Positions 3,947-20,406 of a DNA stretch of 32,000 nucleotides are shown piece by piece. The stretch is taken from contig NZ_CP064923.1 in assembly GCF_018336915.1 (NCBI RefSeq), forward strand, positions 5,849,946 to 5,881,945. Reading direction: 5' to 3'. This DNA comes from Acaryochloris marina S15. Its GTDB lineage: Bacteria > Cyanobacteriota > Cyanobacteriia > Thermosynechococcales > Thermosynechococcaceae. The notes beneath the pieces were generated by a model, which saw nothing but the letters and a program-made list of their open reading frames with translations, was not told the DNA's origin and made no database searches. The position numbers and the translations under genes were made by a program. How positions within the stretch are numbered: the first letter of the stretch is position 1; every line of letters starts with the position of its first letter.

Positions 3947-3985
3947 TTTACAAACCCATTTACTTGTGTTACATTTATTTACATA
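3947..3985 (+). promoter_or_regulatory. HLR1-type (RpaB-binding) direct-repeat array overlapping the hli-1 core promoter
   Basis: Four half-sites: TTTACAAA(3947-3954)-4-TTTACTTG(3959-3966)-1-GTTACATT(3968-3975)-2-TTTACATA(3978-3985). The last two form a canonical HLR1, (G/T)TTACA(T/A)(T/A)N2(G/T)TTACA(T/A)(T/A). TTTACA-N17-TACATT reads as -35/-10. The ATG lies 23 nt downstream. Confidence 0.7.
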
Positions 3986-4007
3986 GTCAATTACGGAACT
4001 AACACAC

Positions 4008-4220
4008 ATGACATCTAGCGGATATACCTCTGACGATCGCGGTCGCATCAACCGTTTTGCAGTAGAGCCTAAAACTACAGCTAAAGCAGAGCCAGTATTT
4101 GGTTTCAATAAAGATGCTGAAAGATATAGTGGCCGTCTAGCCATGATCGGCTTCTTCGGAATTTTGTTGATTGAACTCGCCACTAATCTCACCTTTGTAC
4201 AGATTGTGACCGGCGCATAG
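4008..4220 (+). CDS. hli: High-light-inducible protein (HLIP/Scp, one-helix CAB-like), 70 aa
   Basis: Chlorophyll-binding helix motif ExxxGRLAMxGF (FGFNKDAERYSGRLAMIGFFGILLIELATN). The size and N-terminal extension resemble the HliA/B class. HLR1 lies upstream. GGAA at -13 as a weak SD. Confidence 0.9.
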   Translation: MTSSGYTSDDRGRINRFAVEPKTTAKAEPVFGFNKDAERYSGRLAMIGFFGILLIELATNLTFVQIVTGA

Positions 4221-4240
4221 TTGCCAACAACAGTATTAAT

Positions 4241-4269
4241 AAAAAGCTGAGGCAGTACCTCAGCTTTTT
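4241..4269. terminator. Bidirectional rho-independent terminator between the convergent hli-1 and response regulator genes
   Basis: AAAAAGCTGAGG-cagta-CCTCAGCTTTTT. The stem is perfect, with an A-tract on one side and a T-tract on the other. It lies between the stops at 4220 (+) and 4299 (-). Confidence 0.75.
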
Positions 4270-4298
4270 GCTTTTAAAACGTCGGTCTATATCTTGCC

Positions 4299-5012
4299 TT
4301 ATTCACCCCGTTGGATGGCATAGCCTACGCCCCGTACTGAAAGAATCAAGTCGGGTTCTTCAGTATCCTCTTTGAGCTTGTTTCGTAGGCGAGACATATG
4401 AACATCGACGACACGGGTATCAATTTTGCCGTCGGGACTATAGCCCCAAACCTTTTGTAAAAATTCAACTCTAGAGATGGGTTCTCCAGGGCGGCTAACC
4501 AGCAGCTCTAGTAAATTAAATTCGAGATGAGTGAGCTGAATTCGTTCTTGATCCTTGTAGACTTGCCGTTTATTGGTATCAATCTCGAGATGGCCCACTT
4601 GAATGACACCGGCTGATGTTTGGTGGGAAGCGTGGGATTTGGTGATTCGCCGCAGAATACAGCGAATGCGCGACTCTAGCTCTTTGGGTGAAAAAGGCTT
4701 GACCATATAGTCATCCGCCCCCATTTCCAGGCCCGTAATCCGATCGGCCACGTCTGAGAGGGCAGTCAACATAATAATGGGGACATCTGATTCTTGCCGA
4801 AGAGATTGACAGACCTGATACCCATTTAGTTTGGGCATCATCACGTCCAAAATAATCAAATCGGGTTCTTGATGCTGAAAAACTTGCAGGGCCTCCTCGC
4901 CATCAGCGGCAGTGATGACGACAAACCCCATCATGGAGAGACGGGTTTCTAGGATCCGACGAATGCTAGCTTCATCATCAGCGACTAGGATTGTTTGCTG
5001 CTGATCTTTCAA
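4299..5012 (-). CDS. OmpR-family response regulator, RpaB/Ycf27-type (receiver plus winged-helix DNA-binding domain)
   Basis: ILVADDEASIRRILETRLSMMGFVVITAADGEEAL...DLIILDVMMPKLNGY...PIIMLTAL.DVADRITGLEMGADDYMVKPFSPKELE is nearly colinear with remembered RpaB sequences (Synechocystis and S. elongatus). The C-terminus, LLELLVSRPGEPISR...VWGY...DTRVVDVHMSRLRNKL, is OmpR/PhoB-type. The start is TTG (5012..5010), because an in-frame TAA lies two codons upstream and there is no ATG before the receiver domain. Confidence 0.9.
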   Translation of the reverse strand: MKDQQQTILVADDEASIRRILETRLSMMGFVVITAADGEEALQVFQHQEPDLIILDVMMPKLNGYQVCQSLRQESDVPIIMLTALSDVADRITGLEMGADDYMVKPFSPKELESRIRCILRRITKSHASHQTSAGVIQVGHLEIDTNKRQVYKDQERIQLTHLEFNLLELLVSRPGEPISRVEFLQKVWGYSPDGKIDTRVVDVHMSRLRNKLKEDTEEPDLILSVRGVGYAIQRGE

Positions 5013-5370
5013 ACTGCTTTAGTATTCCAGAGACAGACAACGTTTAAGAGATGAGTACTCTTTGAACCTTAAATAACAAGCCCAAAAAAAAGTATGAATA
5101 TGAAGTTTTTTTACATATTCTCAGAGGCTTCTAGAACTTGAGTTTAGCAGTTGGTAGTCGGTTCATTCGCATTGTTGTGCCAAAGTTTGAGCTTTCGGGG
5201 CAAGAGACCCCACTTGAGGCAGACGATGATCCCCTTTCCTTTGGCATGGGATGGGTGCTGTCCACTCAATGATTACAGTGGGTTGGACAAATATCGGTCT
5301 GGATATCGACACGGTTAAGTCCTACAAAACCTTAGGTACTCCATGGTTTGAACAACAAATTATTAATTGC

Positions 5371-5409
5371 TTGACATGTTGTTACATTTGCGTTACATTT
5401 ATTTACATA
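5371..5409 (+). promoter_or_regulatory. Tandem HLR1 units overlapping the hli-2 core promoter
   Basis: TTGACATG(5371-5378)-2-GTTACATT(5381-5388)-3-GTTACATT(5392-5399)-2-TTTACATA(5402-5409). TTGACA(5371-5376)-N17-TACATT(5394-5399) reads as -35/-10, so both promoter hexamers sit inside HLR1 half-sites. Confidence 0.75.
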
Positions 5410-5447
5410 AAGCAACAACACACATGAATTAATCGGAGTCTAATCCC

Positions 5448-5591
5448 ATGAACACCTCTAACAACTTTTTTGGATTCAACCCCTTTGCTGAGGCTTGGAG
5501 CGGTCGTCTGGCTATGGTGGGTTTCTATGCTGCCATCGTCATTGAATTAGTGACTGGCAAAGGGGTATTGCATTTCTGGGGCTTGATGTAA
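5448..5591 (+). CDS. hli: High-light-inducible protein (HLIP), 47 aa; absent from the ORF track (below its size cut-off)
   Basis: Hand translation: [47 protein letters not shown]. It carries the full FGFN...AExxxGRLAMxGF HLIP signature. GGAG lies 10 nt upstream of the ATG (cggagtctaatcccATG), the same leader as hli-3. An HLR1 promoter lies 38 nt upstream. Confidence 0.88.
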
Positions 5592-5651
5592 GCGCTCCTA
5601 ATGGTTGATGGGATGGGCTAATCATCCCAAGCTCACCCTGAAAGAGATGAA

Positions 5652-5756
5652 ATGGCTAAAAATATTCAACCCTCATTCCCAGGCTTCAATTCATTGATAG
5701 AGATCTAGAATAGCCATCTAGCAATGCTCGTGAAGACTGAAGCTTGGGACATCTGA
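5652..5756 (+). pseudogene. Decayed hli copy (HLIP relic with an in-frame TAG and a truncated helix)
   Basis: The frame reads MAKNIQPSFPGFNSLIEI*NSHLAMLVKTEAWDI*. It aligns position-for-position with hli-2 ([19 protein letters not shown] against PGFNSLIEI*NSHLAMLVK) and keeps GFN, the Glu, the Asn and LAM. The TAG (5706-5708) sits where hli-2 has TGG (Trp). The rest of the transmembrane helix is lost. Confidence 0.4.
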
Positions 5757-5892
5757 CGGGTTCAGCATCGAAAAGCTTAATACTCCTCTGGGGGTGGCCA
5801 GTTAAACGAACTGCAAAAAAGTCTTTAGTCCTCGCCAGATACGGGCTTGCCGTTTACCCAGTCAAAAATCCTACTAAATCATTATCAAATTG

Positions 5893-5922
5893 ACCTCAGC
5901 TGCATGGCTGAGGTTTTCTTTT
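5893..5922 (+). terminator. Rho-independent terminator ending the hli-2 transcription unit
   Basis: ACCTCAGC-tgcatg-GCTGAGGT followed by TTTTCTTTT. The hairpin directly after hli-2 (TGGGATG-N7-CATCCCA, 5609-5629) has no T-tract, so read-through to this site is plausible. Confidence 0.6.
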
Positions 5923-5926
5923 GGCG

Positions 5927-5949
5927 GTTATGTAACAAATAGTTAGCTG
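5927..5949 (+). promoter_or_regulatory. Degenerate HLR1-like element (GGTTATGTAACAAATAGTTAGCTG) just after a terminator
   Basis: GTAACAAA-ta-GTTAGCTG keeps the 8-2-8 layout but has several mismatches. Its first 14 nt, GGTTATGTAACA(A/G)A, are shared with the element at 7384-7407, which also follows a terminator. Confidence 0.25.
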
Positions 5950-6019
5950 AATATGAGAAGTCGAAACCCTTATAAAACAGGCTTTTGAGACATATATAAG
6001 GTGCTATCCTTTCATATTC

Positions 6020-6059
6020 TTGACAAAACGTTACACAGCAAGTTACATTTATTTACATA
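6020..6059 (+). promoter_or_regulatory. Tandem HLR1 units overlapping the hli-3 core promoter
   Basis: TTGACAAA(6020-6027)-2-GTTACACA(6030-6037)-4-GTTACATT(6042-6049)-2-TTTACATA(6052-6059). TTGACA-N18-TACATT reads as -35/-10. The TTG 'start' of track ORF 6020..6244 is the first base of this -35 hexamer. Confidence 0.75.
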
Positions 6060-6091
6060 AGATTCATTCCTCGTTTACGGAGTCCAACGCT

Positions 6092-6244
6092 ATGAGTACA
6101 CAAAATCCAATCTGGGGTTTCACCGATTTTGCAGAAACCTTTGGTGGTCGCTTGGCAATGATGGGATTCTTTCTCGCCCTTGTGACTGAAGTTTTGACTG
6201 GTCAAGGCATTGTCGGTCAGATTGCTACATTACTAAACTTCTAA
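6092..6244 (+). CDS. hli: High-light-inducible protein (HLIP), 50 aa
   Basis: MSTQNPIWGFTDFAETFGGRLAMMGFFLALVTEVLTGQGIVGQIATLLNF. ATG at 6092, preceded by GGAG (cggagtccaacgctATG). The HLIP helix motif is present. The upstream 24 codons of the track ORF overlap the promoter and are not coding. Confidence 0.9.
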   Translation: MSTQNPIWGFTDFAETFGGRLAMMGFFLALVTEVLTGQGIVGQIATLLNF

Positions 6245-6293
6245 ACTGGCGTTTCGGGTTTAGAACGACTCTATTTCATCTTTAATATTTTTT

Positions 6294-6320
6294 CCCCGGC
6301 CTAGGCCGGGGAGCTTTATT
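6294..6320 (+). terminator. GC-rich hairpin (hli-3 terminator or attenuator) in the hli-3/sigma junction
   Basis: Perfect 18-nt palindrome CCCCGGCCTAGGCCGGGG (6294-6311). It is preceded by ATATTTTTT and followed by AGCTTTATT, a short and imperfect U-tract. Confidence 0.55.
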
Positions 6321-6355
6321 CCTCAGTTATCTGTGTTTACCCAAACATCGCCATT

Positions 6356-7312
6356 ATGAAAAATTCATTTGTTAGTAAAGATTCAATCACTACCTATCTG
6401 CGTGAGATTAGCCGCTTTCCTCTGTTGAATCACGAACAAGAAGTCATCTTTGGCAAGCAGGTACAGCGGTTAACAACTTTGCAGGAGTTGAAGCAAGAAT
6501 TACAGGACCACCTCGATCGAGAGCCGACCCAGAAAGAATGGGCCAAGAAGGCTCAGGTGTCTGTCGCACAACTGCAGAAGGAACTGAAAGTCGGAAACAA
6601 AGCCAATCGCAAAATGGTGGAATCCAATTTGCGTCTGGTCGTCTCCATTGCCAAGAAGTACAACAAAGCCAAAGTTGAATTTTTAGATTTGATTCAAGAA
6701 GGCACGATTGGCCTGCAGCGGGGTGTCGAGAAATTTGACCCTATGAAAGGCTATCGCTTCTCTACCTATGCGTACTGGTGGATTCGCCAAGCCATGACCC
6801 GTGCGATCGCAGAACAAGAACGAACGATTCGCCTCCCCATCCATATCAATGAAAAGCTTAGTAAGATGCGCAAAGTGAAGCGCCAACTGTCTCAGACCCT
6901 GCACCGCGACCCTACCGTGGCGGAGCTGGCAGCAGAGATGGAGCTTACCCCTAAAAAAATTGAAGATTATCTCAACTATGCTCGTCGCTCCATTTCTTTG
7001 GATATGCAGATTGGTGACCAGAAAAATACGGAACTGTGGGAGTTACTAGAAGACCCCAACGAATCCCCTGATACCTATGCCACGGCATCTTCTTTACGGT
7101 CCGATTTGGCAAAACTACTCCAGGATCTCAGCCCTCAGCAGCGAGAAGTGATTACGTTGCGATACGGCCTGATTGACCAGAACCCCTTGACCTTAGCGAA
7201 GGTGGGAGAGCGTCTAAACGTCAGCCGGGAATGGGTCCGCCGAGTGGAGCGAGAAGCCTTTAAGGTTTTGCGATCGCAAAAAGTGATGCTGCAAGAATAT
7301 ATGGCTTGCTAA
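6356..7312 (+). CDS. RNA polymerase sigma factor, group 2 (RpoD/SigA family, SigB/SigD-like, 318 aa)
   Basis: Regions 1.2-4.2 are recognisable: [66 protein letters not shown], and a C-terminal 4.2 helix-turn-helix ([24 protein letters not shown]). It has no long region 1.1, consistent with group 2. Confidence 0.92.
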
Positions 7313-7342
7313 ACCCCTTGTTCCAGTCTCAATCTGTGCATC

Positions 7343-7377
7343 AGCTACTCTTCGGTCTAAAAGAGTAGCTTTTTTTT
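7343..7377 (+). terminator. Rho-independent terminator of the sigma factor gene
   Basis: AGCTACTCTT-cggtctaa-AAGAGTAGCT (perfect 10-bp stem) followed by T7 (7371-7377). Confidence 0.85.
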
Positions 7378-7407
7378 GTGACAGGTTATGTAACAGAAAT
7401 TTACATA
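7378..7407 (+). promoter_or_regulatory. Orphan HLR1-like promoter element with no ORF directly downstream
   Basis: GTGACAGG(7378-7385)-4-GTAACAGA(7390-7397)-2-TTTACATA(7400-7407). GTGACA-N18-TACATA could serve as -35/-10. The next 240 bp are AT-rich and hold no ORF longer than 29 codons before the pgr5 promoter. Confidence 0.35.
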
Positions 7408-7649
7408 CCGGCAGTCTATGGTGTTAGTCGGGAACCTTAGGTTTTTGGTTTTACCAGGGAGATTGAGTGTTAAACAGAGCCGACTATATTATGCTGATTC
7501 ATCCTTTTATTGATTTTTTCCGTATAAATATGTCTTTATCTCGAAATAGATTAGATTTACAGCTTTATAAGCCTATTTAATTTCTTTTTTGAGATCTATT
7601 AAGCCTGGATGAATTCAATACCACCAGTTTTAAATACTCGCAACTTTTG

Positions 7650-7698
7650 TTGACATTCTGTTACAAAACAATTAACATGGTTAACATAACGTTACACA
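7650..7698 (+). promoter_or_regulatory. HLR1-like repeat array overlapping the pgr5 core promoter
   Basis: TTGACATT(7650-7657)-2-GTTACAAA(7660-7667)-4-TTAACATG(7672-7679)-1-TTAACATA(7681-7688)-2-GTTACACA(7691-7698). TTGACA-N17-TAACAT reads as -35/-10. The repeats are more degenerate than the hli sites, but the spacing pattern is the same. Confidence 0.55.
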
Positions 7699-7710
7699 AA
7701 AGAATTCACC

Positions 7711-7908
7711 ATGTTTGCTCCCCTCGTCGTGCTAGCCCGCAACATTGTCGGTCAACCCAGATTTATCAAACTCCGGGGGAAAGCCATTGCCCTGCATTCA
7801 AAAGCGATTACCAATGTCTGTAATCAGATTGGTATTGATCGGAGTCGTCGTCAGGGTTGGATTCGACTAGCACGCGATAACGGCAAACGTCTTGGCTTGC
7901 TGGCCTAA
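7711..7908 (+). CDS. pgr5: PGR5-like protein (proton gradient regulation 5; cyclic electron flow around PSI), 65 aa
   Basis: MFAPLVVLARNIVGQPRFIKLRGKAIALHSKAITNVCNQIGIDRSRRQGWIRLARDNGKRLGLLA is colinear with the remembered mature Arabidopsis PGR5 (GLFAPLVVVTRNLVGKKRFNQLRGKAIALHSQVITEFCKSIGADAKQRQGLIRLAKKNGERLGFLA) and with Synechocystis Ssr2016. Confidence 0.88.
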   Translation: MFAPLVVLARNIVGQPRFIKLRGKAIALHSKAITNVCNQIGIDRSRRQGWIRLARDNGKRLGLLA

Positions 7909-8117
7909 AGGATGAGTCAGCGTGATGCCCATCTCCCTCCTAGAGCAGAGGCGCAATCACCAAACTGGCTTCATTCTTACAAAGAGCCGCATCCCTTTCT
8001 GTAACTCAGCGCTACAACCGTTCAAACTTCTACTTTTGGGTGGCTCATCTTCCGGGTAATTCAAGATTTTTCACTTGCTTGAACCATCCTGATCATTCTT
8101 TAACTAAGGACATTCTC

Positions 8118-10031
8118 ATGCCTGTAAACGATAAACCTCGACGCCCACGGCCAAGCCTTCTCAGCTCGATTTTGCTGGTGCTGCCTTTGGTGTTAATAGT
8201 GGTCAATTTAGTCTTGACCTTTGGTAATGGTCCGCGCGTCTCTAAAGTGCCCTACAGCTTTTTCATCGAGCAAGTTCAGGATGAGCAGGTGGCTCGGGTC
8301 TCCGTTGGCCAAGACATCATTCGTTATCAGATGAAAGATATGGATGGAAACTCCGGGCAAGTTCAAGAAACCACCCCTATCTTCGACCTAGAACTCCCCA
8401 AACTTCTCGAATCCAAAGGCGTTGAATTCGCCGCTACCCCTCCTGCTGGAAATCGCTGGTTCACCACCTTACTGAGCTGGGTGATTCCTCCCGTGATCTT
8501 CGTTGCCATTTTTCAATTCTTTAGCCGTGGTGGCATGGGTGGCGGTGGTCCCCAAGGTGCCCTCTCCGTGACCAAGAACAAAGCCAAAGTCTACGTCGAA
8601 GGCGATGACAATAAAGTCACCTTTGATGATGTTGCTGGTGTCGAAGAATCCAAAGCCGAACTCGAAGAAATTGTTGAGTTCCTCCAGTCTCCCAAGCGCT
8701 TCACTGATATCGGAGCCAAAATTCCCAAAGGTGTCTTACTCGTAGGCCCTCCTGGAACCGGTAAAACTTTGATGGCCAAAGCTGTCGCCGGTGAAGCAGG
8801 GGTTGCCTTCTTCAGTATCTCGGGTTCAGAATTTGTAGAACTATTTGTCGGTACCGGTGCAGCCCGAGTCCGGGACTTGTTTGAACAAGCGAAGAAGAAA
8901 GCCCCCTGCATTATCTTTATTGACGAATTGGATGCCATTGGTAAATCTCGGTCTGGTGGAAATGGCTTCGTTGGTGGTAATGATGAGCGGGAACAAACTC
9001 TCAACCAACTCTTAACAGAAATGGATGGTTTTGGGGCAGGCGATGCCACGGTTATCGTCTTAGCTGCAACGAACCGTCCTGAAACTTTAGACCCTGCCCT
9101 ATTACGTCCCGGTCGATTTGACCGTCAAGTACTGGTAGACCGTCCTGATCTCACAGGTCGTCTAGCTATCTTGGAAATCTATGCCAAGAAGGTGAAGCTC
9201 GGTGAGAATGTTGACCTCAAGGCTATGGCCACTCGTACTCCTGGGTTTGCAGGCGCTGACTTAGCCAACTTGGTTAATGAAGCGGCACTACTCGCTGCCC
9301 GACGAGGGAACAAGGTAGTGGAGACCCAAGACTTTGCGGAAGCAATTGAGCGAGTAGTAGCGGGTCTAGAGAAGAAGAGCCGCGTGCTCAACGAGAAAGA
9401 GAAGAAGATTGTGGCTTACCACGAAGTCGGCCATGCCTTAGTCGGAGCCAAGATGTCAGGTTCGGATCAAGTGGAGAAGATTTCCATTGTTCCTCGCGGT
9501 ATGGCTGCACTAGGTTACACGTTGCAAGTGCCTACGGAAGATCGGTTCTTGTTGAATGAGGCTGAACTTCGAGGTCAGATTGCGACTCTACTGGGTGGAC
9601 GAGCAGCTGAGGAAGTCATCTTCGGTAGTATCACGACGGGTGCTTCTAATGATTTACAAAGAGCGACGGATCTAGCGGAGCAGATGGTGACGTCCTACGG
9701 CATGAGCGAGGTGTTAGGACCCCTTGCTTATGACAAGGGTCAGCAGAATAATTTCCTCGGTGGGGGAATGAATGCTCGTCGTGCAGTCAGTGATGAGACG
9801 GCTAAGGAGATAGATAAGGAGGTTAAGGGTATTGTGGAGACGGCTCATCAAGAAGCGCTCACTATCCTCAAGGGAAATAAGGAGCTGTTGGAGATGATTT
9901 CTGAGCAGTTGCTGGAGAAGGAAGTGATTGAGGGAGATGGTCTCAGAGAAATGCTGGCTAAGGTGCATCCTGAAACCCATGTGCAGTCTGAGCAGCATGT
10001 TCAAGAGACTGAAGAGCCTCTAGCTGTCTAA
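8118..10031 (+). CDS. ftsH: ATP-dependent zinc metalloprotease FtsH
   Basis: N-terminal transmembrane segments, Walker A (GPPGTGKT), Walker B (IIFIDELDA), second region of homology ([20 protein letters not shown]) and the zinc motif HEVGHAL. I prefer the ATG at 8118 (MPVNDKPRR), which is preceded by AAGGA, over the track's GTG at 8040. Confidence 0.95.
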
Positions 10032-10059
10032 AACGTTCCACTGATAAATTCCTTTGATT

Positions 10060-10089
10060 GCCCTCTGCACAGCAGAGGGCATTTTTTTT
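10060..10089 (+). terminator. Rho-independent terminator of ftsH
   Basis: GCCCTCTGC-aca-GCAGAGGGC followed by A-T8 (10082-10089). Confidence 0.8.
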
Positions 10090-10996: not shown

Positions 10997-12301
10997 CTAT
11001 AAATGAACGGTGTTTATGGGACTGAGAAAACTACGCAATTGCCTGCCTATCGCCTCAATGGAGAACAATGATTGTGCTCGTTGATAAGCTTGATAGGCGA
11101 ATTGCAACCGCAAGGCATCATCCTCTAAAAGTTGGCCCATCGCGGCAGCCAGGGAATGAGGATCTTCGACGGGTACCACTACTCCACCTGGATCAGCACC
11201 GCTGATAACAGCTTCTGAAACACCTGGAACATCTGTAGCCACTACTGGTAATTGGCAAGCCATTGCCTCAATGAGAGCAACTGCAAATCCTTCATGGCGT
11301 GAGGGCAACACATACAGATCGGCAGCGACCAGATAGTTGCGAATCGTGGGCTTATCAAGGATGTATTCGTTGACCCAATGTATGTTGGCCATTTGTGTAT
11401 CATCCAGTAACTGTTGCAGTGTGTCTGCATCGCTACCCGTACCCACCAGCAATAATTGCAAATCTCGGGTTGGATGATCTTGACACAGACATTGCCAGGC
11501 TTGTAGTAAGACATCTAATCCCTTGCGGTGTAGATCGACTCGTCCATGCCAAGCCACGACTTGAGCATCAGTCGCAATACCAAGATGTTGACGGATCGGA
11601 GAGTCTTCTCTGGTCGCCCATTGCTCTAAATTAAGGGGATTATAAATTTTGGCAATTTTTGCTTGGGGCACGTTGTAACAGGTCATGACTCGGTTGATTT
11701 CTTGCTGAGATCCAATAATGAGTCCTGAACACGCGCGTAACGTAGTCGGGCGGACATATCTTTCTAATTGGGTAATCTGAAAATCTCCTCCCTGAAAGCT
11801 AGCAAAAACAGGAATATTCAGCCTTTTACCGAGCCATATGCTGATATCAAAACGGGCATATTCATATTCTTGGCAAAGAAGGGCATTGCAATGTTCTTGC
11901 TGGATTACCTTTGCTAGTGATCGCCAGGGCGTTGCCAAATAGGGGACAAGATTTCGCAGGGCAATCCACCAAGGGGATTGATGCCCAAAAGTTGCTTGAG
12001 CCGTTAATCCATAGGGATTCACCATCTGGTGACGAATCGCTAGATAAACAGAAGGAGACGGCAATGTCCAAATGACAGCACCGGTAGGTTGATGGATAGA
12101 GCGCATGGGAGAGCGGACTTGCGCAGATATACAGATTAAAACACTATGAATGTTAACCTTCTGGAGGGCTTCAATGTAGCCAAATAGCCATCCCCCTGTC
12201 ATGTCTCGTTGAAATGCTTTGAGAGAGATATCTAGCGGATCTAGAAAATCTTCAATCACATTCCCCCACGGTAAGAGGGCAATCGTTGACACGGATGTCA
12301 T
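10997..12301 (-). CDS. Glycosyltransferase family 4 (GT-B, 'group 1')
   Basis: C-terminal GT4 signature LPSRHEGFAVALIEAMACQLPVVATDVPG (EX7E region). The track start at 12313 is TTG. The ATG at 12301 overlaps the upstream stop as ATGA. Confidence 0.85.
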   Translation of the reverse strand: MTSVSTIALLPWGNVIEDFLDPLDISLKAFQRDMTGGWLFGYIEALQKVNIHSVLICISAQVRSPMRSIHQPTGAVIWTLPSPSVYLAIRHQMVNPYGLTAQATFGHQSPWWIALRNLVPYLATPWRSLAKVIQQEHCNALLCQEYEYARFDISIWLGKRLNIPVFASFQGGDFQITQLERYVRPTTLRACSGLIIGSQQEINRVMTCYNVPQAKIAKIYNPLNLEQWATREDSPIRQHLGIATDAQVVAWHGRVDLHRKGLDVLLQAWQCLCQDHPTRDLQLLLVGTGSDADTLQQLLDDTQMANIHWVNEYILDKPTIRNYLVAADLYVLPSRHEGFAVALIEAMACQLPVVATDVPGVSEAVISGADPGGVVVPVEDPHSLAAAMGQLLEDDALRLQFAYQAYQRAQSLFSIEAIGRQLRSFLSPINTVHL

Positions 12302-13035
12302 ATTTTCTGCCAAGAAATGGCAGTTTCAGTACCCATGGCATGGGGTTGATGCGACCAGTAGCCTATCCAGGTGAGTGGACTTAAGATCCAACAAACCAAT
12401 TGCCGTTGATAACCAGCCAGTTTGGAAAAAGAAATATCGTGACAGAAGACGGTCAGTGGGTTGATAAATGTCATCCAGTGACAACGAGACAGGGGAATAA
12501 GAGATTCCAACTCCGTCATAGAATATCCCTGTCGGACATGGCCCCATTCTGCCATCAGGTCTGTATCTTGAGGACAAATCATTTGCATCAATGGGTAATA
12601 GGGAAATCGCCAGTTTTCATTGGGCGTACTGATGAGTAGATAGCCGCTTGGCTTCAGCACTCTGATGGCTTCAGCGATTGCCTGTTGATGGTTGGGAATA
12701 TGTTCTAACAGATCAAACATGGTCACAGCATCAAAGGAGCCATCCTTGAACGGAAGTTCTGTAGCATCTCCACAGATATAGGTCACACGTGCTTGTTGGT
12801 TACAAGCAGAATTGGCATAGTCAGGGTTGAAGTCAATGTTAGTAATCTGGGCAGTGGGGAAGAGCATAGCGCTTAGGCCACTTTCCCCTCCTCCCACTTC
12901 TAGAATCTTGGAATAATCGGCGTCTGGAGTGATCTGATAGATTGCTCTCATTTTCTCCCGATAGAAGAAGCCTAGCGTTAAGGGTTTCGGGAATGGATTA
13001 TGCGCCAAGAAGTCGTGGAAATTCGCTTTAGACAT
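12298..13035 (-). CDS. Class I SAM-dependent methyltransferase
   Basis: Motif I ILEVGGGESG, acidic post-I residue (NIDFN), motif II/III region (FDAVTMFDLLEHI...LKPSGYLLIS). ATG start. Confidence 0.85.
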   Translation of the reverse strand: MSKANFHDFLAHNPFPKPLTLGFFYREKMRAIYQITPDADYSKILEVGGGESGLSAMLFPTAQITNIDFNPDYANSACNQQARVTYICGDATELPFKDGSFDAVTMFDLLEHIPNHQQAIAEAIRVLKPSGYLLISTPNENWRFPYYPLMQMICPQDTDLMAEWGHVRQGYSMTELESLIPLSRCHWMTFINPLTVFCHDISFSKLAGYQRQLVCWILSPLTWIGYWSHQPHAMGTETAISWQKI

Positions 13036-13042
13036 AATGTAA

Positions 13043-14305
13043 TCAATAACGGTTAGTCACTGAATCGATCGCTTCCTGGGGATGACGACGATCCAGATGT
13101 TGTGTCATCCATAGATAAGTAAAGGGTCCTAAACAACACCCTAGAAGTTCAGACCAGTAAGTGCTGTACTGCCTTTGAAACCCATTCCGAATCGCTCTGA
13201 TCAGTAAGCGTAAATAGTTGAGGGGCAGTAGGCCAACTAGTCGCCAAAGATTGCCCCAATGTCGATGTTTTTCGAACTGGATCAGCAAGGCGACAACGTG
13301 GCCTTGCATATAAGCCTGCATTTGCTGTTGGAGACCTGCAAAGGCTCGTCGATGAGAATGGTAAACGACGGCAGTCGGCAGATAGCGACAGTGCCCACCA
13401 TGAGCGAGGATCCGATACCACATTTCCGAATCCTCGCTGCACCCAGCCGCACCTGCCCCCAATCGAAGATCAAAGCCTCCAAGCTGGTTGAAAATGTCTC
13501 GCCGGAACGCCATATTCGCACCAGCACCGATATCCCAAACCGGCACAGCAGTGGCCTGATGTTGCCTAAAGAACTGCGTTTCAAAGGTGATCGGTTGATA
13601 GCCATTGTTGAGATAGCCGTAGGATAGTTCAAAAAGGCCCTGAGCATCTGTTTCTAACTCTTTGGGCAACACAATTCCAGTGACAGCCATGATCTCTGGT
13701 GAAGAGAAACCCGCACAAAGCTGCTGAAGCCAGAGGGGATGAACACAAACATCATCATCTGTAAATACAACAATGTCTCCCTGACTATGTTGAATACCCG
13801 TATTGCGAGCATGGCTCAGGCCCGGTTGTGGTTCAAGTAGATAGTGAACCCCTTCAAATTGTTGGATCAATGTCTGAGTACTGTCATCTTGAGGTGCATT
13901 ATCTACGACAATAATTTCATTTGCTGCTGAAGTGAGTTGTTGCAATGACTGCAAGCATCGTTTGAGGTACTCAGGTCGATCCCGCGTACAAATAATCAAG
14001 GAGACAGATAGATCTGAGTGAGCGGGGCTAGGGATAATATCATCTAGCGGTGCTACAAGGTCACTGACATGAGTCAGCGTCAGTTCGCAGGAACTTGTCT
14101 TTAAGTATGAGCGAACTGTTGACTGGATCGTTTGAGCGGCTAACGTCGCTAGGGCAGCATCTGATAAAGGCAATTCTTCCGGTGTAACAGTTGCATATCC
14201 CAAGGGAAGATGATGCCACCAGAAAATCAGATAAAGTGACCGTGATATTGCCCTTAACTGAGGTAAAGGGTGACTTAAATCAATATGAATAATGTCGTAT
14301 GCCAT
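13043..14305 (-). CDS. Glycosyltransferase family 2 with a ~100-aa N-terminal extension
   Basis: GT-A core: VSLIICTRDRPEYLKRCLQSL, VVDNAPQDDST, ARNTGI, DXD (FTDDDV). The ATG at 14305 shares one nucleotide with the upstream TGA (GTGATGG); GTG at 14308 is the alternative start. Paralogous to 15358..16581. Confidence 0.85.
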   Translation of the reverse strand: MAYDIIHIDLSHPLPQLRAISRSLYLIFWWHHLPLGYATVTPEELPLSDAALATLAAQTIQSTVRSYLKTSSCELTLTHVSDLVAPLDDIIPSPAHSDLSVSLIICTRDRPEYLKRCLQSLQQLTSAANEIIVVDNAPQDDSTQTLIQQFEGVHYLLEPQPGLSHARNTGIQHSQGDIVVFTDDDVCVHPLWLQQLCAGFSSPEIMAVTGIVLPKELETDAQGLFELSYGYLNNGYQPITFETQFFRQHQATAVPVWDIGAGANMAFRRDIFNQLGGFDLRLGAGAAGCSEDSEMWYRILAHGGHCRYLPTAVVYHSHRRAFAGLQQQMQAYMQGHVVALLIQFEKHRHWGNLWRLVGLLPLNYLRLLIRAIRNGFQRQYSTYWSELLGCCLGPFTYLWMTQHLDRRHPQEAIDSVTNRY

Positions 14306-15279
14306 CACTGTGACTCCTTAGGAATCGCACTGCCTAAAATAGCCTGGCGCTGAGTCGCATCCATCATCCATAATTTCCAAATGCCTTGCAGCCAGCCCCA
14401 CCAAAAGTACGCTTTGATCACGACTACTGTTTTGGATTGGTTACCCAACAGCGCTTTCATCCCTTCAAATGTCAATATTTGGAACTGTTGAATACCTTCG
14501 CGAAGAGATGCGAACCACCATTGTTGGTAAGAGTTAGCCCACAACATAGAGTCCCCGTAAAGTTTGGATGTCCCTAAAGCATGGTTAATCTGCATGAGAT
14601 AACCCGAAGATAATCGATGGCTGGGAATAATATGGTGCAATTGGCAAGTCGGAGCATACCATAAGGGACGTTTGGCACCCAGCCTTAACGCTAATTCCAC
14701 ATCTCCCCCTGATACGAGACGTTTGCCAATTCGATCTTCTAGCAATGGCTGGTCAATCCACCCTGTTTCGATCAAGGCATGGCGATTAATTACTATTCCA
14801 GCCCCGACTAAGCACTGAATGATTTTGGCTTCTGCTCCTCCTTCTTGTTCAGCGAAGGAGTAGTGAAACTGTTCGACAAAAGGAGGGGGAGCGGTTTCCC
14901 AGGACAGAATCACTCGCCCCCCAAATGCCCCACAATGAGGATGAGATTGGGCAAACTTAGCCGCTTCTGCGACCCAATTGGGTGCGATTAAGCAATCATC
15001 ATCAATGAATGCAATCCAGTCTGTTTGAGTCTGCTTGACGCCACATACTCTGGCTGGGGTCAGTCCCTGAACGGATTCGTTGACTATCGCCAGATGGTCT
15101 ATACAGCTTTGGTACTGGGATACAACAGCCTCTGTATCATCAGTACAATTGTTATTGACAACTAGAACTTGCCAATCCAGAGCTACATCAAGGGTTTGGT
15201 TTGCAATGGCATTCAGGCAGCGCGCCAATAAAGGTGCATTGTTATAGGTGCAAATCACTAAACTTAATGACAAGGACAT
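14305..15279 (-). CDS. Glycosyltransferase family 2
   Basis: LSLVICTYNNAPLLARCLNAIANQT, VVNNNCTDDT, and DXD (FIDDDC). The track start at 15330 is TTG. The ATG at 15279 (MSLSLSLVICTYN) sits right before the GT-A core. Confidence 0.8.
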   Translation of the reverse strand: MSLSLSLVICTYNNAPLLARCLNAIANQTLDVALDWQVLVVNNNCTDDTEAVVSQYQSCIDHLAIVNESVQGLTPARVCGVKQTQTDWIAFIDDDCLIAPNWVAEAAKFAQSHPHCGAFGGRVILSWETAPPPFVEQFHYSFAEQEGGAEAKIIQCLVGAGIVINRHALIETGWIDQPLLEDRIGKRLVSGGDVELALRLGAKRPLWYAPTCQLHHIIPSHRLSSGYLMQINHALGTSKLYGDSMLWANSYQQWWFASLREGIQQFQILTFEGMKALLGNQSKTVVVIKAYFWWGWLQGIWKLWMMDATQRQAILGSAIPKESQ

Positions 15280-15357
15280 AGTCTTTGAAGAAGAAGATTC
15301 CTGGATGAGTTGCCTGAGCAAGTAGCCCAATGTATTAAGAGCAAAAAAATGAATGAC

Positions 15358-16581
15358 TTAGATAGGGTGGGTATCAAAGTGACTCTGAATGGATTGAGTA
15401 CGGCGCTGTGATCGCCCATATCCACCCAGAAGTCCCATGATGCCACCCCAAATTTCCGCTAACACCATGTCAATAGGTAAGGTATGCGTTTTCAGTACGC
15501 TCCGACTTAACAGCGTGAGTTGGTATTGAAACCACCAACCGACTAATTGAATGAATTGCGATCGCATCTCGCGATCATGTAAATAAGATTTGCCCACAAA
15601 AGCCATAAAACCTAACCCCCAGCTCCAATATTGTCGACGTAATTTCGCTAGATCTGGTCGATGTTGATGAAAAACCAAATAGCTGGGCTCATAAATTAAG
15701 GGATGCCCTGCTCTCACCACACGATAAAAAATATCTAAATCTCCCCCCCCTGGCATCGGTCCACCTGTATCTAGGGCATTATCAAATCCCCCCAGCTCTA
15801 ACAACAGAGATCGACGAAAAGCCATGTTGCAACCCGCTCCAAAAATCCCTGCACCGCATGGATAAAGTGTATTTCCTGCTAGCTGTTGACCATATCGAAT
15901 TTTCTCAAACCCCCGTTGAAACCCCCCGCGTTCCTCAAATAAAATTTGGGCGGTGGAGTTTAGCTCATAGGGCAAGACCAATCCCGTAAAACCTCCTGCA
16001 TCAGGATTTTCACAAAACGCAGCAGTTAAACCCTCCAACCACAACCGATCTACCGTGACATCATCATCTAAAAAGGCTAAGAGTTCAGTCGTTGAACTCT
16101 GTAGGGCATGATTGCGGGCAAAATCAAGGCCAGGTTTGGGCTCACAGACATAACGAACTGTGGGTAAGTCGCTCACTAACTCATACGTCTGTTGATCCGA
16201 TGGGGCATTATCTACCACTAAGATGTCTAACTTAGACGAGCTTTGTTGTTGCAAAAGCAGAAGAGACCCCAAGCAGCGTTGGAGATTTTCAGTCCGATCC
16301 TTCGTACAAATTGCTACTGTCAATGATGGCAAGCTGATGGTAGAGACCGGATTGATCTGAGCATAGATCTTGTCTTGCAAAATCTTCTGTATAGTGTCTT
16401 GCCCCAACCAATTGGATACCTCTTCTGCTGACAGAGTTGTTTGGGGCGGAAACGCCTTCATTAAGAACCCCACAGGCTGATCTTGATATCGGAGGATGAG
16501 TGCCAACCCCGTATCATTCGGCCCAGTCGTTAATGTGGGCAAAGGTTCAGACACTTCTAGCTCAAGGATTGGATAGGGCAT
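15358..16581 (-). CDS. Glycosyltransferase family 2 with an N-terminal extension (paralog of 13043..14305)
   Basis: LTVAICTKDRTENLQRCLGSL, VVDNAPSDQQT, ARNHAL, DXD (FLDDDV). It shares GAG(A/C)NMAFRR..GGFD with the paralog. The ATG at 16581 overlaps the ABC gene stop by 20 nt; the track start at 16611 is TTG. Confidence 0.8.
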   Translation of the reverse strand: MPYPILELEVSEPLPTLTTGPNDTGLALILRYQDQPVGFLMKAFPPQTTLSAEEVSNWLGQDTIQKILQDKIYAQINPVSTISLPSLTVAICTKDRTENLQRCLGSLLLLQQQSSSKLDILVVDNAPSDQQTYELVSDLPTVRYVCEPKPGLDFARNHALQSSTTELLAFLDDDVTVDRLWLEGLTAAFCENPDAGGFTGLVLPYELNSTAQILFEERGGFQRGFEKIRYGQQLAGNTLYPCGAGIFGAGCNMAFRRSLLLELGGFDNALDTGGPMPGGGDLDIFYRVVRAGHPLIYEPSYLVFHQHRPDLAKLRRQYWSWGLGFMAFVGKSYLHDREMRSQFIQLVGWWFQYQLTLLSRSVLKTHTLPIDMVLAEIWGGIMGLLGGYGRSQRRTQSIQSHFDTHPI

Positions 16582-18358
16582 GATGATACTGGCGTCGATA
16601 AAGTTCTGCAAAGAGGCCTTGCTGATTTAGTAATTGAGATAGTGTTCCGCATTCCCTAATTTGGCCAGCATCCATCACCACAATTTGTTCAGCGTTTTCA
16701 ATAGTGGACAGGCGATGAGCAATCGCAATAACCGTCCGATCACGACAAAATATGTCCAGAGCCTCTTGAATTAAGGATTCAGAAAGGGTATCTAAAGCAT
16801 TTGTGGCCTCGTCTAAAATTAGAATGTCTGGATTTCTCACAATTGCTCGCGCTAGAGCAATTCGCTGGCGTTGCCCTCCAGATAGACGGATGCCTTTATC
16901 TCCGACTAATGTTTGGTAGCCATCAGGCAACTCTGCAATAAATTGATGAGCATGGGCTTGTTGAGCAGCAGCCAGAATTTCGTCTTTCGTGGCATCCAAA
17001 CGACCATAGGCAATATTGTGATAAACCGTATCACTGAACAGAAAAATATCTTGGCTCACTAAAGCGATATGGCTACGCCAATCTGCGAGATTGAGCTGAG
17101 TCAGCGGTTGGCCGTCAACCCGAATCTCTCCTGTTGTCGGGTCATAGAAGCGAAACAGCAAGTGAATCAAAGTAGACTTGCCTGCTCCAGAAGGTCCGAC
17201 TATCGCCGTAGTTTTTCCTTGGGGAATAGCAAGAGATAGGTGACTTAGGACGTTATTCTGGTCTGGGCTATAGCAAAAGCTAACCTGGTCTACTTGTATT
17301 TCATGGTTCAGACTGAAAAACGATTGATAACCAGATGGTACATAGGTTTTATTGGATTGATCGATAAAGTTTAGAACTGAATCGACTGAACTAATGAGTC
17401 CGAGTAAAGCGACATAATCATTACCAATTGCCTTAATACGTGGTTGGAGCTGGTACAAAATCAGGACAAAAATGAGCAATGTTGGTAGGCTGACCCAATT
17501 GAAAAAGAGTCCAATCACCAAAACCAATAGAACCAACATCGCACCTAATACTTCGAAGGTAGGGCTAGTGGTCATGGACAACCTATTAAGCTTCAAAAAT
17601 ACCTGACTGACTGTTTGGGAAGAATCATCAAAACGTTTCGTTTCAAAATTTTCTTGGCCAAAGCCCCGAATGGTTTGCATTCCTGCCAATCCTTCGCACA
17701 TCCTTACTGCTAGGTTGCTGTTGGCATGCAGGGCTTCCTGCCCTAGTTTTTTGACCTGTTGAGTTAACAAACGGACCAGCGTTGAAATACAGAAAAGTGC
17801 TAGGCCCACAAAGAGCGTCAATGACCAAGACAGCATCAGTAGTAGGCCGATAAAGACGATAACAGTGCAGCTACTAATTAAGATCTTGACTAATCGTTCG
17901 AGCGCATCACTAACCCGCCACGTTTCTGAGGCTAAAAGATTGAGCAAGGATCCAGATTTTTGATCCTGTAAATAACTATTGCTAACGGCCATCAATTGCC
18001 GAAAGATACTGGTTCTGAGCTGATGACTAATTTTGCTATTCAGCCAGGCAAACAAGACTAAATTGATATAGAGCAGGATATTTTTGAAGGCGATTGCCGC
18101 AAAAATACATGAGGGAATGACAACAATGCGCCACTGGGCGGATAACGGTCCAAATAATCTATTGAGCTGAGCTGGGAGGCCACTTTCTAGGGATGCTGCA
18201 CCTGAAGCGTTCATCCCTTCTAAAAAAGGGATGAATAAGCTTAATCCGAATCCTTCGGCTAAGGAAGAAGCAATGCCTAAGATAACAATGGCAGCAATAC
18301 TCAAGGGGAAAGGGCTGGCTAATTGAAATAACTGCTTAATGGCTTTCTGCTCATTCAT
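16562..18358 (-). CDS. ABC exporter, fused permease plus ATPase (MsbA/NdvA-like type I exporter half-transporter)
   Basis: N-terminal six-helix transmembrane domain. Walker A GPSGAGKST, ABC signature LSGGQRQRIALARA, Walker B ILILDEATNALD, H-loop AHRLST. There is no C39 peptidase domain. Confidence 0.92.
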   Translation of the reverse strand: MNEQKAIKQLFQLASPFPLSIAAIVILGIASSLAEGFGLSLFIPFLEGMNASGAASLESGLPAQLNRLFGPLSAQWRIVVIPSCIFAAIAFKNILLYINLVLFAWLNSKISHQLRTSIFRQLMAVSNSYLQDQKSGSLLNLLASETWRVSDALERLVKILISSCTVIVFIGLLLMLSWSLTLFVGLALFCISTLVRLLTQQVKKLGQEALHANSNLAVRMCEGLAGMQTIRGFGQENFETKRFDDSSQTVSQVFLKLNRLSMTTSPTFEVLGAMLVLLVLVIGLFFNWVSLPTLLIFVLILYQLQPRIKAIGNDYVALLGLISSVDSVLNFIDQSNKTYVPSGYQSFFSLNHEIQVDQVSFCYSPDQNNVLSHLSLAIPQGKTTAIVGPSGAGKSTLIHLLFRFYDPTTGEIRVDGQPLTQLNLADWRSHIALVSQDIFLFSDTVYHNIAYGRLDATKDEILAAAQQAHAHQFIAELPDGYQTLVGDKGIRLSGGQRQRIALARAIVRNPDILILDEATNALDTLSESLIQEALDIFCRDRTVIAIAHRLSTIENAEQIVVMDAGQIRECGTLSQLLNQQGLFAELYRRQYHHALSNP

Positions 18359-18371
18359 TGCTCAGACCCGT

Positions 18372-19628: not shown

Positions 19629-19823
19629 AATATTGTGGATATTAGATAATACTAATATTTTATCTACAGGTGCTAGAAGCAGTACGTCCTGGGAAATTGG
19701 CCCAATGTAGCTAAGGCGAAGTGCTGAGTATCTTTTGATACAAAAAGATGGCAAATCTTTATTGAGAGGTTACTTAGATCAAGCATAGAGATGAACCCAT
19801 TTGCATGTATTATTTTATAGAAT

Positions 19824-19847
19824 AATATACCATTTCTATGGTATATT
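19824..19847. repeat. Perfect 10-bp inverted repeat in the AT-rich divergent spacer
   Basis: AATATACCAT-ttct-ATGGTATATT, about 200 bp upstream of the 19628 start. It is a candidate operator between the divergent GT2 genes. Confidence 0.4.
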
Positions 19848-20406
19848 TCAAAGAAAATATCAGCAATTTAATTGAGCCTGAACTAATATAACTTGCCTTT
19901 GAATTAATCGCTAATGCGTTAATTTCCATGTAATCTTTGGATAAGTTTTGAATTTGATCAATGCTAACAAATCCTTGCTTTTTTGATGAAGCATTAATGT
20001 AGAATTGTACCTATCAGCTTTTAGTTCTTGATTGCAAAATATTGAGAAAACCAAAAACTTCTTGCTGTTTAATAGAAATTTAATATTAGTTATGAAGTTT
20101 GAAAAGTCTGGTATTATTGTCAGAAAGATTCCAATTTACATCGTATATTTGGAATAGCCAGGTAAAGAAAATTGAATTGATTCACTCGTTTGGAGAATAG
20201 TAATATCAGTCCTCTTATGGGATGGTTTGTTTTTTAGTGCTGTTTGGATTTCAGGAAAATTCTGTATGGCATTTTTTTGAAATAGTTCTAGGAAGGTTGA
20301 GTTTGATTTGTTCTGTAGCACCTGAATTTGTCTTTCAGTCCGTTAGAGCTGGATATATTTTGAAGCTAGGGCACTACCTAAAATAAGCAGCTGTCTTGAT
20401 TGTTTT

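Follow-up and report, generated by a model that had tools for sequence, protein, structure and literature searches.

Does a cyanobacterium that gathers its high-light genes at one locus also place them under a regulator of their own? RpaB and its cis-element HLR1 form the central light/redox switch of cyanobacteria; the protein is normally single, essential and nearly invariant, and its target genes are scattered. In Acaryochloris marina S15 a gene for an RpaB-family response regulator stands among genes for high light inducible proteins (Hlips, hli genes), a sigma factor, pgr5 and ftsH, at positions 3947-10031 of the 32,000-nt stretch of contig NZ_CP064923.1 that we analysed (5,849,946 to 5,881,945, hereafter the window). 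A first-pass annotation of the sequence had proposed that these 6 kb are a self-contained, possibly transferable regulator-plus-regulon module. We consider another reading probable, namely that the cluster is a gathered and multiplied part of the known RpaB/HLR1 regulon lying beside a lineage-specific orphan paralog of RpaB, so that two evolutionary units stand side by side. This reading draws on genes, sites, conservation, copy structure and purifying selection, all of them observed here, and on the induction of the hli and pgr5 orthologs as reported in the literature.

A compact cluster of light-stress genes

The cluster of light-stress genes is real, compact and functionally coherent (Table 1). 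Each intact gene that had been placed there from the letters alone is present (three hli genes, the regulator, the sigma factor, pgr5 and ftsH), as judged by domain and profile hidden Markov model searches and by NCBI protein names; the cluster proteins correspond to accessions QUY42715-QUY42722. PGR5 was matched by NF049860 over residues 1-65 of 65 (124.1 bits, cut-off 50), and FtsH by TIGR01241 (806.7 bits, cut-off 600) with its FtsH_ext, AAA and M41 peptidase domains all there. The FtsH4 subgroup label given to the latter comes from the name of an identical protein in the NCBI annotation pipeline (PGAP) and from a 72% identity to a gene labelled ftsH4. The three intact Hlips scored 17-21 bits on PF00504, under the gathering score of 22.3 (the match of hli1 is partial, E 4e-4); they keep E, GR and AMxGF of the chlorophyll-binding motif ExxNGRxAMxGF and are named high light inducible or chlorophyll a/b-binding proteins by NCBI, and the hli2 protein is identical in sequence to AM1_3232 of A. 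marina MBIC11017. The sigma factor, previously called SigB/D-like, passes the cyanobacterial RpoD-type model TIGR02997 (417 bits, cut-off 384.5) and falls below the cut-off of the SigD model NF005642 (478.5 against 524 bits). Judged by these profiles it is of group-2 type with SigD as the nearest subfamily, but does not qualify as SigD. The terminator scan of the region found no terminator-like site between pgr5 and ftsH.

The canonical chlorophyll-ligand Asn of ExxNGR is missing from all the intact Hlips, where hli1 and hli2 carry Ser instead and hli3 carries Gly; the one Hlip of Asn type at the locus, which reads AETWNGRLAM in relatives, is a pseudogene both here and in Acaryochloris sp. 'Moss Beach'. 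The loss of this Asn may affect pigment binding in a chlorophyll-d organism.

HLR1 sites on the hli and pgr5 promoters

The published HLR1 consensus, (G/T)TTACA(T/A)(T/A)NN(G/T)TTACA(T/A)(T/A), consists of two octamers 2 nt apart and spans 18 nt. When the window was scanned with it, we obtained three perfect matches, and ten with at most two mismatches where shuffled sequence gave a mean of 0.98; the 15-mer TTACATTTATTTACA occurred three times against 0.03 expected. Eight of the ten matches fall within 3947-7700, where they are intergenic and lie directly 5′ of hli1, hli2, hli3, pgr5 and a doubtful hli relic. The claim that four promoters of the cluster carry the element is therefore upheld for those of the three hli genes and pgr5, with three perfect 18-mers, far above chance. 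The same four are the region's best sigma-70-like predicted promoters. In hli2, hli3 and pgr5, the -35 hexamer coincides with the first half-site of the upstream HLR1 while the second HLR1 spans the -10 hexamer and the likely start site, so that the predicted core promoter is blanketed by four half-sites about 10-11 nt apart (in hli2, the -35 TTGACA is the first half-site of 5371-5388 and the perfect HLR1 overlaps the -10 TACATT). Among the window's HLR1 matches with up to two mismatches, none belongs to the sigma gene, to ftsH or to the regulator.

HLR1 sites upstream of hli and pgr5 were kept in every ortholog and paralog examined, that is in the assemblies SU_2_1 (Acaryochloridaceae) and RU_4_1, in the metagenome-assembled genomes (MAGs) of the IP29b series, on the Moss Beach plasmid pMB06 and in a second chromosomal copy of that strain. 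The twin HLR1 of hli2 was kept in all its orthologs, SU_2_1 included. Leptolyngbya SIO1E4 has pgr5 alone, with one HLR1 upstream.

A divergent member of the RpaB family

The regulator had been described as RpaB-type, and its family membership stands: it scored 392.1 bits on the NCBIfam RpaB model NF045944 (cut-off 330; canonical RpaBs about 399), and PGAP names it RpaB. This model, however, cannot separate orthologs from paralogs, because the plasmid paralogs of Acaryochloris also pass its cut-off with 344-365 bits. The regulator showed a flat 68-71% identity to every canonical RpaB listed, from Gloeobacter to Thermosynechococcus, and 67-70% to those aligned from Gloeobacter to Cyanobium, whereas canonical proteins share 80-88% among themselves over the same span, and in a neighbour-joining tree its clade fell outside that of the canonical RpaBs. 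Among the matches listed, its close relatives (87-100% identity) all come from Acaryochloris and the next named relative, at 72%, is an Acaryochloridaceae MAG. Within the family, identity is 72% for the regulator, 82% for PGR5 and 88% for FtsH4. The gene is under strong purifying selection, with ratios of nonsynonymous to synonymous distance (dN/dS) of 0.02-0.09; over the regulator, sigma, pgr5 and ftsH genes the ratio was 0.02-0.13 where synonymous distances (dS) could be estimated. By these comparisons the regulator is not canonical RpaB, but belongs to an orphan, fast-evolving, paralog-like clade of the family that is restricted to the Acaryochloridaceae.

The regulator retains D12/D13, D56, T84 and K105 as well as the helix DTRVVDVHMSRLR (DTRVVDVHxSRLR in canonical RpaBs). 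With its phospho-acceptor residues preserved, and the recognition helix intact at its core, it is probably among the proteins that bind the HLR1 sites of the cluster, perhaps as a lineage-specific modulator beside a more canonical RpaB. A search of the PDB gave no RpaB structure, the closest entries being MtrA and RpaA.

A canonical RpaB is likely encoded elsewhere in Acaryochloris genomes. In Moss Beach, three further annotated RpaB genes lie on plasmids pMB01-03, which brings this sister strain to at least four RpaB-family genes, and MBIC11017 likewise carries several. The plasmid-borne paralogs of both strains have no adjoining hli genes. In a supplementary table of the Miller laboratory (mBio 2024), eggNOG assigns the RpaB orthology term (KO) K11329 to the chromosomal AM1_5663 and to AM1_C0101, which is on a plasmid, whereas AM1_3230, the MBIC11017 ortholog of the window regulator, carries no KO at all. 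A canonical Acaryochloris RpaB was not among the best 120 of more than 2,500 protein matches, nor among the matches listed from the search of genome contigs with the regulator, which were mostly unrelated OmpR-family loci together with two Acaryochloris MAG loci. A small RpaB-family clade (our proteins P0013-P0018) is 73-79% identical to canonical RpaBs.

We also observed a separate RpaB-like clade in Capilliphycus, Lyngbya, Limnoraphis and Planktothrix (our loci L016-L022), 61-64% identical to the regulator and 66-69% to canonical RpaB, whose members have a DVMMPKLN variant in common and no hli neighbours. Duplication of RpaB is evidently not confined to Acaryochloris and Nostoc plasmids.

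Two units with probably separate histories

The regulator is 100% identical to the copy in Moss Beach, and the surrounding 6.3 kb are 97% identical to the chromosome of that strain. In the A. marina group (the window strain, Moss Beach and MAG IP29b_bin.137), two units are contiguous. In the first, the orphan regulator is divergent from a small hli operon made up of hli2 and a dead second hli, with hli1 on the regulator's other side; the second is a repeated block of one or more hli genes, a group-2 sigma gene, pgr5 and ftsH4. The first unit recurs in RU_4_1 (87% identity of the regulator) and SU_2_1 (72%), where two hli genes, of 47 aa and then 50 aa, run divergently from the regulator behind the same twin HLR1. 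The genes that flank this unit are unrelated to those of the window. In both assemblies pgr5 is on a different contig from the regulator. The block of RU_4_1 begins with a 56-aa open reading frame (ORF) without Hlip motif and continues as hli-sigma-pgr5-ftsH, while that of SU_2_1 (our locus L107) reads hli-hli-pgr5-DUF2949-ftsH, without a sigma gene. In the synteny search that the first-pass annotation had called for, the cluster is conserved with its HLR1 sites across Acaryochloris but splits into two separate units in RU_4_1 and SU_2_1, and only the pairing of the regulator with the divergent hli operon is conserved family-wide. In the genome and protein searches made, the cluster was not seen outside the Acaryochloridaceae, and canonical rpaB of Thermosynechococcus relatives had no hli or ftsH neighbour.

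An uncultured cyanobacterial bin (L015, 3401-6405) has an rpaB-like gene, 78% identical to canonical RpaB, convergent with a DUF2949-ftsH4 pair that has HLR1-like repeats upstream. Since DUF2949-ftsH is found both there and in SU_2_1, pgr5-DUF2949-ftsH4 may be an older order.

A repeated and partly mobile effector block

Further copies of the block, found through members of the same 90% protein clusters, lack the regulator and keep HLR1. MBIC11017 has three chromosomal sets, of which AM1_3229-3236 is the ortholog of the window cluster and includes the regulator AM1_3230, while no regulator is evident for AM1_1593-1597 and AM1_4583-4588 in the tables consulted. The second chromosomal copy in Moss Beach consists of an hli gene, a 61-aa sigma remnant (region 4; L109, 8369-8554), pgr5 and a 635-aa ftsH4. 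On pMB06, a 140-kb plasmid typed as conjugative by prediction (MOBF relaxase and MPF_T mating-pair formation genes), we found hli-hli-sigma-pgr5 and a frameshifted ftsH, followed by a tyrosine recombinase. The pgr5 genes of pMB06 and of the second Moss Beach chromosomal copy differ by a dS of 0.065, which points to a recent exchange between plasmid and chromosome; both are separated from the window pgr5 by a dS above 1.

The paralogous blocks decay by different routes, through the frameshift of ftsH4 on pMB06 and through reduction of the sigma gene to its 61-aa remnant in the second chromosomal copy. In the former (L103, 8347-10303), the frameshift leaves ORFs of 148 and 538 aa, and the protein is 98% identical to that of the window.

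Decayed hli genes and neighbouring features

The decayed fourth hli gene that had been noticed in the letters was borne out by alignment to intact orthologs, and the pseudogene is real. It translates to MAKNIQPSFPGFNSLIEI*NSHLAML and aligns to an intact 50-aa hli at the same position in two other Acaryochloris genomes, MN(T/S)QPS(F)TGFN.FAETWNGRLAM... Its lesions are the loss of the ATG, an in-frame change of TGG to TAG and deletions of 7 nt and 44 nt, and the same lesions occur in Moss Beach. The Asn-motif 50-aa Hlip is intact in the IP29b MAGs, RU_4_1 and SU_2_1. A second candidate relic, at 7441-7467, was judged doubtful, being a match of nine residues only with no conservation in the paralogous copies.

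The HLR1 that precedes this candidate is an orphan site just past the sigma terminator. It is perfect in the pMB06 copy (L103, 7803-7820) and in the second Moss Beach chromosomal copy (L109, 8702-8719), and no conserved ORF follows it in the window or in these two paralogous copies. This site could represent the promoter of an hli gene since lost, or else that of a small RNA.

Table 1. Features of the light-stress cluster and its borders, in window coordinates.
Feature	Position	Strand	Description
hli1 promoter (predicted)	3947-3985	+	-35 TTTACA, 17-nt spacer, -10 TACATT
HLR1 of hli1	3968-3985	+	perfect, GTTACATTTATTTACATA; over the -10 and likely start site
hli1	4008-4220	+	70 aa; one-helix Hlip with N-terminal extension, motif AERYSGRLAMIGF
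Hairpin	4241-4269		in the gap where hli1 and the regulator gene converge, bordered by A and T runs; read from the sequence, not flagged by the terminator scan
RpaB-family regulator	4299-5012	-	237 aa; OmpR-type response regulator, TTG start, Response_reg and Trans_reg_C domains
Upstream element of the regulator	5139-5154 (within 5128-5155)	- (sense)	core of 16 invariant nt, TGAGTTTAGCAGTTGG as read on the + strand; some 125 nt upstream of the regulator start codon
hli2 promoter (predicted), twin HLR1	5371-5409	+	5371-5388 (2 mismatches), 5392-5409 (perfect)
hli2	5448-5591	+	47-aa Hlip
hli pseudogene	5652-5757	+	decayed ortholog of the 50-aa Hlip
Terminator-like hairpin	5892-5915		after the hli pseudogene
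hli3 promoter (predicted), twin HLR1	6020-6059	+	6020-6037 (2 mismatches), 6042-6059 (perfect); TTGACA, 18 nt, TACATT
hli3	6092-6244	+	50-aa Hlip, motif AETFGGRLAMMGF
Terminator-like hairpin	6292-6313		after hli3
Group-2 sigma-70 factor	6356-7312	+	318 aa; regions 1.2, 2, 3 and 4
Terminator	7343-7370		after the sigma gene
Degenerate HLR1 and weak Hlip-like remnant	7390-7407 (HLR1), 7441-7467 (remnant)	+	HLR1 with 2 mismatches; remnant VFGFTREIE
pgr5 promoter (predicted), twin HLR1	7650-7698	+	7650-7667 (1 mismatch), 7681-7698 (2 mismatches); TTGACA, 17 nt, TAACAT
pgr5	7711-7908	+	65 aa; cyclic electron flow protein
ftsH	8118-10031	+	637 aa; FtsH4 type by annotation
Terminator	10059-10081		after ftsH

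The hairpin between hli1 and the regulator gene is probably a bidirectional terminator. Upstream of the regulator, the 16-nt core was present at all 12 loci of the regulator clade, including the 72%-identical relative, and at none of the 102 other loci compared. With TAAACT reading as a -10 hexamer in the sense of the gene, the core probably represents the promoter or leader of the regulator itself. A scan of metagenomes with the core returned at least 120 stretches; those listed were all chance matches, and none of them had the regulator clade or hli genes. An Rfam search of the region gave nothing significant, and no RNA structure is supported for the regulator leader, whose consensus fold is weak (-4.8 kcal/mol, with almost no covariation); the predicted pairing of the element region with the start-codon region is also weak.

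Beyond the cluster, positions 10997-21585 hold 11 kb of glycosyltransferase (GT2/GT4), methyltransferase and ABC-exporter genes, with a G+C content down to 37-42% around 19-22 kb. These genes are missing in Moss Beach, where a transposase comes after the DsbA-like gene and the glutamate dehydrogenase gene stands immediately behind it. This segment looks like a strain-variable polysaccharide island bordering the photoprotection cluster.

Expression in A. marina MBIC11017

A response of these genes to light is documented by published RNA-seq of MBIC11017, which compared cultures acclimated to high white light with cultures under low far-red light; log2 changes were +0.64 to +3.15 for hli genes and +0.89 to +2.76 for pgr5. 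In the regulator-linked set the values were +1.10 for hli1 (AM1_3229), -0.55 for the regulator (AM1_3230), +0.64 for hli2 (AM1_3232), +0.75 for hli3 (AM1_3233), +0.46 for sigma (AM1_3234) and +0.89 for pgr5 (AM1_3236). The set without a regulator gave +1.02, +3.15 and +1.60 for its hli genes AM1_4583, AM1_4584 and AM1_4585, +0.38 for sigma (AM1_4586) and +2.76 for pgr5 (AM1_4588).

Relation to the known regulon

Published targets of RpaB and HLR1 in Synechocystis include hli, pgr5, sigD and ftsH1-3; there, HLR1 over the -10 hexamer and start site marks genes that RpaB represses in low light, and pgr5 has a twin HLR1 and is RpaB-repressed. Its FtsH4 promotes the early induction of Hlips and degrades them later. 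The functional coherence that the first-pass annotation saw in the grouping is supported by these published targets and by the control of Hlips by FtsH4. The Acaryochloris cluster shares with the Hik33(NblS)-RpaB/HLR1 regulon of Synechocystis 6803 and Synechococcus elongatus 7942 the consensus of the cis-element, the kinds of target (hli, twin-HLR1 pgr5 and ftsH) and, in its predicted promoters, the position of HLR1 over the -10 and likely start site. It differs in that the targets are scattered there and are clustered and multiplied in Acaryochloris, that a group-2 sigma gene (sigD/rpoD3) is a target there whereas the sigma gene of the cluster has no HLR1 of its own, and that the regulator is canonical RpaB there and a divergent, lineage-specific member lies beside the Acaryochloris cluster.

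If the cluster works as in Synechocystis and S. elongatus, an RpaB-type protein would, as a phosphorylated dimer, occupy HLR1 in low light and block RNA polymerase, and its release in high light would switch on the hli and pgr5 genes. The Hlips would then protect chlorophyll and the assembly of photosystem II, PGR5 would support cyclic electron flow, FtsH4 would tune Hlip levels and the sigma factor would redirect transcription. In this scheme we infer the identity of the HLR1 binder and the co-transcription of pgr5 with ftsH4.

Parts of this picture have been drawn for MBIC11017. In its 2024 report, the Miller laboratory describes putative HLR1 sites near the start sites of chromosomal HLIP genes, illustrated for AM1_3193, lists HLIP genes and PGR5 among those induced by high light, AM1_4584 and AM1_4588 included, and raises 'RpaB or a homologous regulator' as the HLR1 binder. 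The same laboratory has described rpaB (ycf27) paralogs on plasmid pREB3, which are linked to cpcL and phycocyanin genes, whereas the window regulator is linked to hli. In the text of these reports that was consulted, we found no description of the linkage between regulator and hli, of the repeated hli-sigma-pgr5-ftsH4 block or of a copy on a conjugative plasmid.

The FtsH4-Hlip pair offers a further comparison, as its genes are unlinked in Synechocystis, while in the window about 4 kb or less separate the PGAP-named FtsH4 gene from three hli genes and ftsH4-hli linkage recurs in every Acaryochloris block copy, the FtsH4 label here depending on annotation and the 72% identity. On plasmid pB of Chroococcidiopsis sp. 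CCNUC1 (our locus L105), a stretch of about 10 kb holds nblA, hli and ftsH4 together with genes for a response regulator and an orange carotenoid protein. Like pMB06, pB is a plasmid that bears photoprotection genes, but gene content and order differ, the block has neither pgr5 nor sigma, and a scan of the stretch gave no HLR1 with up to two mismatches.

Which regulator serves the cluster

Several observations weigh against the reading that we favour. Of 180 positions that are invariant in ten canonical RpaBs, 39 are substituted in the adjacent regulator, most of them clade-wide. Several of the changes fall in the wing (LSVRGVGY, against LTARGTGY in canonical proteins) and in the loop that leads into the recognition helix, and the regulator could therefore have another DNA specificity. 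The regulator-less AM1_4583-4588 was induced more strongly than the regulator-linked copy, so linkage to the regulator is not needed for the response. The expression values themselves come from acclimated rather than shifted cultures under lights of different colours, with reads that may map to more than one paralog, and the ftsH tags expected beside pgr5 are missing from the published differential-expression table. A somewhat unlikely alternative is that a more canonical RpaB encoded elsewhere (AM1_5663-like) alone acts on the HLR1 promoters, and that the adjacent regulator now has other targets or partners to which it has drifted. Its place beside hli would be inherited synteny combined with the segmental duplication typical of Acaryochloris, with no functional coupling. 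That the copies lacking the regulator keep HLR1 and are induced as strongly or more would fit, as would a DNA-binding domain that is 65-67% identical to the canonical one where two canonical RpaBs share 86%, the assignment of K11329 to AM1_5663 and AM1_C0101 instead of AM1_3230, and the further RpaB-family genes on plasmids. Set against this are the pairing of the regulator with a divergent hli, kept since the family ancestor while the surroundings changed, the retained core of the recognition helix and the strength of purifying selection. If the regulator were the sole essential RpaB of the Acaryochloridaceae, unusually diverged and in charge of the whole photosynthetic regulon, its adjacency to hli would be incidental; its score on the RpaB equivalog model (392 bits, near the canonical value of about 399), its PGAP name and the missing canonical Acaryochloris RpaB among the best 120 protein matches would then be explained. 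We regard this as improbable, since the protein stands at an equal distance (67-70% identity) from each canonical RpaB in the comparison, though these are mutually 80-88% identical, lies outside their clade, diverges much faster within the family than PGR5 and FtsH4, and since another chromosomal gene of MBIC11017, AM1_5663, has the RpaB KO.

The proposal that the whole 6 kb, regulator included, moves horizontally as one self-contained island appears to us very improbable. What it has in its favour concerns the effector block, whose paralogous hli-hli-sigma-pgr5-ftsH copy sits beside a tyrosine recombinase on pMB06 and whose pgr5 is nearly identical between this conjugative-type plasmid and the second chromosomal copy. 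Mobility in this sense would concern a copy of the block and not the regulator, which is in no copy outside the window's locus. The borders of the cluster are free of integrase and transposase genes (none among the window's ORFs of at least 110 aa) and of tRNA genes (none in the whole window), its G+C content of 42-51% is not set apart from the flanks, and the cluster is confined to one family in our searches. Domain searches found no histidine kinase in the window. The self-contained regulator-plus-regulon reading of the first-pass annotation thus fails on three points: the regulator is missing from the copies that are mobile or duplicated, it has no linked kinase, and the response is independent of linkage. 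In more distant relatives, moreover, the two units are split.

Implications for photoprotection in Acaryochloris

Relative to the literature found, the family-wide pairing of the paralog with hli, the hli-sigma-pgr5-ftsH4 cassette, including its copy on a conjugative-type plasmid, and the repeated ftsH4-hli linkage are new; the advance is incremental, since the individual relationships between genes and HLR1 were already known. A bolder proposal, which we put forward as speculative and rather doubtful, is that the paralog has become a dedicated local regulator that keeps HLR1 binding with altered signal input or partners and gives the linked hli operon and, by way of the HLR1 sites they share, the multiplied cassettes a light response distinct from that of the global RpaB regulon. 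The cassette would in that case act as a photoprotection unit of adjustable dosage that passes between the chromosome and conjugative plasmids and helps these shade-adapted, chlorophyll-d cyanobacteria to tune light tolerance between strains.

Acaryochloris offers a natural experiment. Its regulator family is enlarged, and a fast-evolving member has remained beside an hli operon from the ancestor of the family onwards; part of the regulon, in turn, is now a repeated cassette that is also found on a conjugative-type plasmid. How duplicated global regulators split a regulon between them is thereby made a testable question, as is whether gene dosage and the exchange of plasmids can set photoprotective capacity. 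That ftsH4 is repeatedly linked to hli genes provides, for its part, independent genomic support for the relationship between FtsH4 and Hlips described in Synechocystis.

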